IMG/VR virus record: IMGVR_UViG_2693429733_000018
Origin: a virus
Lineage: Duplodnaviria; Heunggongvirae; Uroviricota; Caudoviricetes
Reading direction: 5' to 3' (one strand)
Length of the DNA stretch: 10,025 nt
In this document: positions 4,849 to 6,120 of the stretch, in pieces
Numbering within the stretch: position 1 is the first letter of the stretch
How the letters are laid out: the number at the start of each line of letters is the position of its first letter
Notes under the pieces: generated by a model
Database searches by the model: none
What the model was told of the DNA's origin: nothing
The model's input: only the letters and a program-made list of their open reading frames with translations
Position numbers and translations under genes: made by a program

Positions 4849-4978
4849 ATGGCATTTAAACACTATGATGTTGTCAGGGCGGCGCCGCCGTCAGATCTTG
4901 CGGAAAAGCTGACACATAAACTGAAAGAGGGCTGGCAGCCGTTTGGTAGTCCGGTGGCCATAACCCCTTATACCCTGA
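4849..4978 (+). pseudogene. N-terminal 43 codons of a nanS-p-like esterase paralog, truncated by IS600-like insertion
   Basis: MAFKHYDVVRAAPPSDLAEKLTHKLKEGWQPFGSPVAITPYTL parallels residues 1-43 of the intact gene at 7346 (about 90 percent nucleotide identity); homology stops at 4978 where IS-end sequence begins. Confidence 0.75.
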
Positions 4979-5018
4979 GGTGTACTGGCAATAGCGGACA
5001 CTACCATTTGTTCTTTTT

Positions 5019-5837
5019 TTAAGCAGCCATCTGATGATATTTTTCCCTGAAGGCTGCCGGGGAGATATTCCCCAGACGAGAGTGACGACGCTGACGATTG
5101 TAGAAAATCTCAATGTATTCCCGTATTACTGAGATGGCTTCATCCCGGTTATTAAAACGATAGTGGCTCAGGCTCTCATTTTTCAGCGTTCCCCAGAAGC
5201 TTTCCATCGGAGCGTTGTCGTAACAGTTACCTTTACGCGACATTGATGTTTTCAGACCAGACTGCTCCTGTATGACCCGGTAATCGTATGCGCAGTACTG
5301 TGAACCTCGATCAGAGTGGTGGATTAGCCCGGCAGGTGGGCGCTGGCTCCTGAGCGCCATAAACAGGGCTTTACCTGTCAGCTCTTTTGTCATGCGCTCT
5401 CCCATGGCGTAGCCGACAATTTCGCACGTATAAACATCTTTGATGCCAGCGAGGTACAACCATCCCTCCTGTGTGGCAACATACGTCAGGTCCGCCACCC
5501 AGACCTGATTTGGTGCTGTAGGAGCGAACGTCTGGTTCAGCAGATTTGGCGCAACTGGCAGATTGTGGTTCGAGTTCGTAGTCGCTCTGAACTTGCGTTT
5601 CTGCTTACAGCGTAGCCTTAGCTCCTTACGAAGACGTGCCAGTCGGTCACGACCAACGATGATGCCATTCTCTGCCAGCTCCGTCTGGAGCCGCCGGGTT
5701 CCATATGTTTCGCGAGTGCGGATATGTGCCACCTTAATCTCCAGTTTTAGCCGCTCATCACTTTGTTTTCTGTCTGAGGGTTCATGCTGTACCCAGTTGT
5801 AATAACCGCTCCTGGATACACCAAATACCTGACACAT
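5019..5837 (-). CDS. IS3-family transposase OrfB (DDE catalytic domain), apparently intact
   Basis: Motifs WVADLTYV, HHSDRGSQY and ESFWGTLKNE are present in the translation. Confidence 0.85.
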   Translation of the reverse strand: MCQVFGVSRSGYYNWVQHEPSDRKQSDERLKLEIKVAHIRTRETYGTRRLQTELAENGIIVGRDRLARLRKELRLRCKQKRKFRATTNSNHNLPVAPNLLNQTFAPTAPNQVWVADLTYVATQEGWLYLAGIKDVYTCEIVGYAMGERMTKELTGKALFMALRSQRPPAGLIHHSDRGSQYCAYDYRVIQEQSGLKTSMSRKGNCYDNAPMESFWGTLKNESLSHYRFNNRDEAISVIREYIEIFYNRQRRHSRLGNISPAAFREKYHQMAA

Positions 5838-5872
5838 CGCTTCAATGGGAAATTGTTGTCGCCATTGTTCGA

Positions 5873-6115
5873 TTAACGCGTATTTTTCAGCGACTCCTGT
5901 GCAAAATACGCTGTTGCTTTTTTTAATATATCTCGCTCAAGGCGAGCTTCATTTAACGCCTTACGCAGTTGCAGAATTTCAGATTCCAGTTCAGCCACCG
6001 TGCGGGAACCAGGAGTACCGAGCCCTTTTCTGGCGGCGGTAACCCATTGTCCTAAAGTGCCTTCAGGAAGAGATAATCGGGAAGCGCCTTCACTGATCGA
6101 AAGTTGATTTTCAAG
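5873..6115 (-). pseudogene. IS3-family OrfA (HTH/leucine-zipper protein), N-terminally truncated at the junction with tRNA cluster C
   Basis: Translation ...ENQLSISEGASRLSL...LERDILKKATAYFAQESLKNTR; the upstream part of the ORF-track reading frame is antisense tRNA sequence. Confidence 0.7.
5918..5924 (-). other. Programmed -1 ribosomal frameshift slippery site (A7 on the coding strand) joining orfA to orfB
   Basis: T7 run on the plus strand lies inside the codons for ILKKATA, in the orfA/orfB overlap, as is typical for the IS3 family. Confidence 0.5.
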
Positions 6116-6120
6116 CTCCC

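Follow-up and report, generated by a model that had tools for sequence, protein, structure and literature searches.

IS600, prophage nanS-p genes and gaps in draft genomes

IS600 is an element of the IS3 family (IS3 group) that is annotated in Shigella sonnei Ss046, 53G and 75/02 and in many genomes of Escherichia coli. Insertions of IS600 and gene loss mediated by IS are the norm in Shigella, and the reference chromosomes carry 229 to 348 IS copies (PMC7373316). The prophage nanS-p genes encode a 5-N-acetyl-9-O-acetyl-neuraminic acid esterase and are found in lambdoid and Stx phages downstream of Q and tRNA genes, with or without stx. A third kind of system relevant here is technical. Assembly pipelines of the Velvet/SSPACE/GapFiller type use read pairs to scaffold short-read contigs and mark each join with Ns of unknown size, and artefacts are described for repeats that were collapsed in such assemblies (PMC5320598).

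The window, i.e., the whole stretch of DNA analysed here, is the entire draft scaffold CXDM01000170.1 (GCA_001253895.1; 10,025 bp). It shows the beginning of a nanS-p paralog, then an IS600 copy whose interior seems to run directly into a tRNA cluster. The IS600 insertion is real, already annotated in closed S. sonnei genomes, and routine. We are highly confident that the apparent junction between IS and tRNA genes is this ordinary insertion seen through an assembly artefact. The insertion itself has little biological weight, and the interest of a truncation against a tRNA cluster would be of the artefact's making.

Compared with these described systems, the IS600 copy of the window agrees with annotated IS600 in its terminal TGAGG repeat, in the arrangement of orfA and orfB, in the A7G motif, and in having the rve DDE domain. 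There is no biological difference between the two, the window missing the last 126 bp of the element since the contig ends. The nanS-p stub shares the DUF1737 N-terminus of the phage genes and occupies their usual position, after the Q gene, the tRNA genes and an iraM-like gene. Unlike in the nanS-p regions of Stx phages, stx is absent between the tRNAs and nanS-p in both prophages of the window. The join resembles the artefacts at collapsed repeats in its N, in its edges at repeat boundaries, in the reuse of a repeat segment, and in the incompatible orders given to different isolates. It differs from them in that the gap is a single N, disguised in the window as a normal base.

The IS600 copy of the window

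The right terminus of IS600 lies at 4976 and begins with TGAGGTGTACTGG... (TGAGG). We defined this terminus on a complete copy of E. coli (L001 4321-5584), which is flanked by a GCA/GCA target duplication. The 1138 bases of the window did not differ at all from the IS600 that a closed genome (L004) has at this locus, and were 99.8% identical (2 mismatches) to an E. coli copy annotated in RefSeq as “IS3-like element IS600”, thus passing the threshold of at least 95% nucleotide identity over the element for membership. The other marks of membership were also found, i.e., orfA and orfB in phases 0 and -1, an A6-7G slippery motif, and an OrfB with the rve domain. The intact end of an IS3-family element that the sequence-only reading saw cutting the paralog after codon 43 is therefore a genuine IS600 terminus, and that reading was equally right that OrfB and the frameshift site are intact (Table 1).

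The part of OrfA present in the window matches the Pfam profile HTH_Tnp_1 at profile positions 20-75. Of the two terminal repeats typical of the IS3 family, the right one (IRR) is in the window, and the left one (IRL) is outside, the sequence stopping at the gap. Beyond the gap lie codons 1-20 of orfA, the start of codon 21, the promoter region, and IRL. In the comparison with full-length IS600 that had been proposed for finding the exact breakpoint, the assembled IS600 sequence stops at 6113, which is position 1138 from the IRR end, and the BLAST alignment of the reference IS600 to the deposited record ends at the same base. This IS sequence does not extend to 6120, the bases 6115-6120 being tRNA-upstream sequence. 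Read as it stands, the fragment lacks both an ATG and a promoter, and its reading would have to run antisense through tRNA genes.

Table 1. Coordinates of the features of the locus in the window.
Feature	Position	Strand	Evidence
DUF1737/nanS-p paralog, 5' fragment	4849..4975	+	translation; Pfam DUF1737
IS600 right inverted repeat (IRR), intact, TGAGGTGTACTGGCAATAGCGGACACT	4976..5002		aligned to complete copies L001 and L004; IRR/IRL comparison
IS600 bases 1-1138 from the IRR end (127-1264 from the IRL end)	4976..6113	-	alignment to IS600 copies
IS600 orfB, 272 aa, intact; HTH_21 and rve DDE integrase core	5019..5837	-	Pfam, rve E=9e-26
orfA, from part of codon 21 (first full codon 22) to stop	5873..6113	-	orfA = IRL-oriented 65-367
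A7G programmed -1 frameshift motif between orfA and orfB, AAAAAAAG	5917..5924	-	IRL-oriented 316-323
Placeholder base, N in CXDM01000170.1, A in the window	6114		record comparison
Second placeholder base, N in the record	1710		second jump without homology in the scaffold
Repeated stretch of P carrying tRNA-Ile(CAU)/Arg(UCG)/Arg(UCU)	6115..6577	+	= 3706-4168

A nanS-p remnant and two interleaved prophages

The stub interrupted by IS600 has 42 full codons, and codon 43 (CTG) takes its second and third bases from the beginning of the IS. Its product (MAFKHYDVV...ITPYTL, the translation of a short ORF from 4849) matches the Pfam profile DUF1737 (E=1e-15). In E. coli (L002), a longer DUF1737 paralog begins with a stretch 96% identical to it; for the beginning of the full nanS-p that starts at 7346 in the window, the identity is 89-92%. 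The latter (617 aa, 7346-9199) has the complete architecture of the family, DUF1737, SASA and DUF6645. The stub has DUF1737 alone, in 43 native codons. To judge from these domains, it is a remnant of the family lacking the esterase domain, i.e., a dead pseudogene and not a functional member.

The window interleaves two prophages. The first, R, is the resident defective lambdoid prophage of S. sonnei type and owns the stub. It encodes Q, tRNA cluster A, a DUF3927 ORF, an iraM/PmrD-like gene, and the nanS' stub with IS600, in the segments 1-1709 and ~4169-6113. The segment 1-1709 is 99.9% identical to Ss046; for the R segments together, identity to chromosomes of S. sonnei lies at 99.6-99.9%. 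The second prophage, P, is an stx-less lambdoid prophage with Q, a DNA methylase, tRNAs, nanS-p, and a holin, in the segments ~2010-4038 and 6115-10025. The order of modules along the window is thus R, N, P, R, N, P. The single switch free of N, from P to R, falls within a stretch of 130 bp identical in R and P (4039-4168), and looks, from the sequence, like a mis-traversed repeat.

Three tRNA clusters can be read in the window, with their first tRNAs at 555-630, 3712-3787, and 6121-6196. ARAGORN classes these first tRNAs as Met(CAT), and in the cluster at 6121-6370 it predicts Met(CAT), Arg and Arg; the RefSeq homologues of the first tRNAs are labelled tRNA-Ile. The tRNA-Ile label is expected for a lysidine-modified CAU anticodon, and the disagreement is one of labelling only. 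Clusters B (3706-4168) and C (6115-6577) are probably one genomic locus placed twice, and most likely the genome has two tRNA clusters in these prophages, not three. The region between the P tRNAs and nanS-p (6371-7345) was without stx and held only copies of a repeat of ~90-260 bp. There are four copies of this repeat in the window (at 1474, 4008, 6417, and 6884), with inner motifs consisting of a GC-rich hairpin followed by a T-run.

Both non-homologous joins fall on gap characters

A look-up of the exact 617-aa nanS-p product gave four places, one of them in CXDM01000170.1. We compared the window base by base with this record. Over 10,025 positions the two disagree only twice: positions 1710 and 6114 are N in the record and A in the window. 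Read directly, the deposited record around 6114 is ...gattttcaNgctcccggccc... This is the exact position of the supposed fusion of IS600 and tRNA cluster: the interior of the IS, said to abut cluster C, abuts an N, as expected of a gap artefact. At 1710, the match to the Ss046 locus (L017) jumps from 9410 back to 7791, in the middle of Q. Positions 1710 and 6114 are the only sites of the window where homology to the closed locus is lost without shared sequence. Since both Ns in 10 kb lie on the only two non-homologous joins, they are scaffold gaps and not a coincidence. The join at 1710 creates an apparent partial duplication of Q, in which 89-388 is identical to 1710-2009, and makes a fused ORF of 146 aa (1600-2040).

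The two edges of the join at 6114 were found at repeat boundaries, which is also expected of a gap artefact. On the left side, we used a 30-nt anchor to extract the base that follows 6113 in all IS600 copies of the fetched loci. In 25 copies G follows and in 7 copies A, and both variants occur within single chromosomes (L006, L010, L011, and L014). This variable base is position 1139 of IS600 from the IRR end. The contig ends at 6113 because IS600 copies of one chromosome differ at the next base, creating a branch in the assembly graph. On the right side, the sequence entered is GCTCCCGGCCCTTTAGC (GCTCCCGGCCC). The sequences upstream of the tRNAs are ...TTATTCTGCTCCCGG in cluster A (549, R) and ...TATGCGGCTCCCGG in cluster B (3706, P), and the R-type (..TTCTGCTCCC) and P-type (..GCGGCTCCC) sequences first coincide at 6115 (GCTCCC). 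The segment that begins there is 100% identical to that of cluster B over 463 bp. A short-read assembler must stop at a repeat boundary.

Gap characters turned into ordinary bases can manufacture truncations, fusions, duplicated modules, and fused ORFs. As the Ns of the gaps became bases in the window, four of its features are suspect: the “three tRNA clusters”, the “second Q fragment”, the ORF spanning 1710, and the minus-strand ORF at 5873-6187. There is no record of the two ORFs made by the joins, neither of the one of 104 aa at 6114 (first residue L or M) nor of the one of 146 aa at 1710. This absence fits an artefact, and is weak on its own. The letters of the window as such had been described correctly by the sequence-only reading.

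The same locus in closed genomes and in other drafts

Two ORFs created by the fusion of nanS' and IS600 are on record, one of 57 aa in 888 collection blocks and one of 62 aa in 76 blocks. We read the loci in the 24 longest blocks for each of them. The nanS'::IS600 junction was found in all 14 chromosome-scale records examined, and it is present in CP000038, HE616528 and CP019689, the chromosomes of S. sonnei Ss046, 53G and 75/02 (PMC5447701). In all 14 loci, which belong to other isolates than that of the window, IS600 is complete (1-1264), with both inverted repeats and an orfA of 100 aa. Hence, none of them lacks an IS end or the beginning of orfA, as was claimed from the window. A complete IS with both repeats had been named in advance as the observation that would speak against a truncation, and this is what the closed genomes contain. 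In each of the 14 loci IS600 is followed by unrelated phage-like DNA, not by a tRNA cluster. The copy of 53G is interrupted (L006 10276-11042) by an IS1 that left both ends of IS600 in place and duplicated ~9-10 bp (IS600 positions 139-148).

The join itself is absent from independent closed assemblies. We used queries of 100 bp across both junctions of the window, and neither was present in 5,426 complete genomes of E. coli. One apparent match with full coverage, in NZ_CP074946.1, was rejected: it consists of two pieces 400 bp apart, from a different IS600 insertion in another paralog. Three other E. coli records seemed to cover 86% of the region, which resulted from joining separate pieces; the arrangement is in none of them. 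A pattern of the junction allowing 0-30 arbitrary bases at the N gave no match in species-representative genomes, a set with one genome per species that says little about S. sonnei.

Draft assemblies show where the contigs break. In other isolates, plain draft contigs break off after 125-402 bp of this IS600. Three sibling scaffolds with neighbouring accessions (CXDK, CXDB, and CXDG) have the modules in mutually incompatible orders. The non-homologous jumps examined in sibling scaffolds were all at runs of N (L024 6087; L026 5238-5248 and 5974-6164), and further Ns were found in L024 at 2232 and in L026 at 1096-1099. In L024, the methylase, tRNAs and nanS-p of the second prophage are uninterrupted and without IS600. 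The WGS prefixes CXBN, CXBR, and CXBV are those of S. sonnei isolates of Holt et al. 2012 (PMC5447701). Given the neighbourhood of accession numbers and the identity of the R segments, the record of the window would be a short-read S. sonnei draft of the Holt/Sanger series.

Explanations for the apparent IS/tRNA junction

An assembly artefact could have arisen in a few steps. A short-read contig carrying the stub would have run into the multi-copy IS600 and stopped at the SNP between copies. The scaffolder would then have continued with the beginning of a further collapsed repeat, namely the P tRNA cluster, and written a single N, which was finally rendered as A in the window. In that case the truncated IS and the IS/tRNA junction are absent from the genome, and the third tRNA cluster is probably absent as well; we would accordingly expect no read to span 6113-6115. 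One argument against an artefact is that the N is single and unsized, meaning that the ends of the contigs were estimated to be close, so the neighbourhood could in principle be real. It would be real in one way if the order of the modules were right and only sequence were missing, i.e., if a complete IS600 were followed within a few hundred bases by the P tRNA cluster and the N hid the last 126 bp, for example after IS600-mediated recombination between two prophages. The read-pair links were enough for the scaffolder to join the contigs with a minimal gap, the IS600 copies with unmatched flanks in S. sonnei indicate IS-mediated rearrangements, and P is rare (an exact-product look-up found its 617-aa nanS-p in six draft contigs only), hence its position is not fixed. 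Yet, the methylase gene is joined to the identical tRNA segment without any N (3672-3711), so that two different sequences would have to precede the tRNA cluster on its left. Links that involve a multi-copy IS or a multi-copy tRNA repeat are unreliable, the sibling scaffolds give three incompatible orders, and P is contiguous without the IS in L024. We thus regard a correct order with missing sequence as very unlikely. It is just as improbable that the link made by the scaffolder is real in the stronger sense that IS600 recombination fused the resident defective prophage to a prophage resembling an Stx phage, but lacking stx, at the tRNA cluster. If that link were true, the locus would be a tandem interleaved Q-tRNA-nanS array with three tRNA clusters and a one-ended IS600.

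A genuine truncation of IS600 is extremely unlikely. A deletion or illegitimate recombination would have taken 124-126 bp of the element together with the rest of the paralog and fused the interior of the IS to the tRNA cluster, at the cost of the left inverted repeat and the first 20-21 codons of orfA. The 3' part of the paralog is truly missing, and the window is continuous over 6113-6116 with at most 1 bp of microhomology, as in illegitimate junctions. However, the base that makes it continuous is an N in the record, as it is at the other non-homologous junction, and on this ground we dropped illegitimate recombination over 1 bp of microhomology. A truncation also fits poorly with edges that both lie at repeat boundaries, with the full IS600 in 14 of the 14 chromosome-scale records, and with a junction found nowhere else among the data searched, and it needs two identical tRNA segments of 463 bp in one genome. 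There is next to no chance that the N is a mere ambiguous base call in a correct contig. The N is indeed single and not part of a run, but the homology to every reference switches at this very base, and likewise at the other N, and at equivalent discontinuities the siblings carry stretches of 1, 4, 11 and 191 Ns. The preferred explanation remains that of an ordinary insertion seen through a scaffold gap. The idea of a one-ended, non-autonomous IS that might still express an OrfAB-like product has no basis, the element being complete in closed genomes, where it is fully equipped for transposition.

History of the insertion

The closed genomes allow both sides of the insertion to be read. At this locus they have CCC|IS|CTAATCAGC, with the IS600 of the closed S. 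sonnei locus at L004 10128-11391. The left end reads ...AAACTCAGGCTACCTCA, then CTAATCAGCTTAGCC..., and in the paralog the sequence past the insertion site continues with CCC and then TGATGCAGGCG. The flanks are CCC and CTA, and no target-site duplication of 3 bp was found at this locus in closed genomes. The gene at the far flank is an ORF of 203 aa whose 3' end is cut by the left end of IS600. It matched no Pfam or PHROGs family. Its intact homologue of 234 aa in E. coli (L028 5896-6600) is in an unrelated small phage-like element with serine recombinases, between tonB and yciI. We searched by tblastn for the missing 3' part of the paralog and did not find it within 10 kb on either side in closed genomes.

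The unmatched flanks point to later recombination between IS copies, not to an element outside the IS3 family. IS600 would have inserted in the nanS-p paralog at about codon 43, and homologous recombination with a second IS600 copy, by deletion or inversion, may have replaced everything beyond the left end. Because the flanks are unmatched, recombination between two IS600 copies is the most likely way in which the remainder of the paralog was removed or moved elsewhere. The sequence-only reading had also proposed an insertion followed by a rearrangement. The removal of the rest of the paralog holds, given the CCC/CTA flanks and the unrelated far gene, whereas the removal of an IS end does not, since the element has its full 1264 bp in the closed genomes. 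This history fits the heavy expansion of IS600 and the IS-driven gene loss documented in Shigella (PMC7373316).

The target duplication that had been suggested for other IS600 copies was seen in one case and not in another: the L001 copy has it, but the copy upstream of the S. sonnei locus (L004 1882-3146) also has unmatched flanks, CCT and CGG. Other nanS-p/DUF1737 paralogs of E. coli carry independent IS600 insertions at different positions (L002 4782-7003; NZ_CP074946.1 1236785-1237190), the paralog in L002 being cut after ~340 codons.
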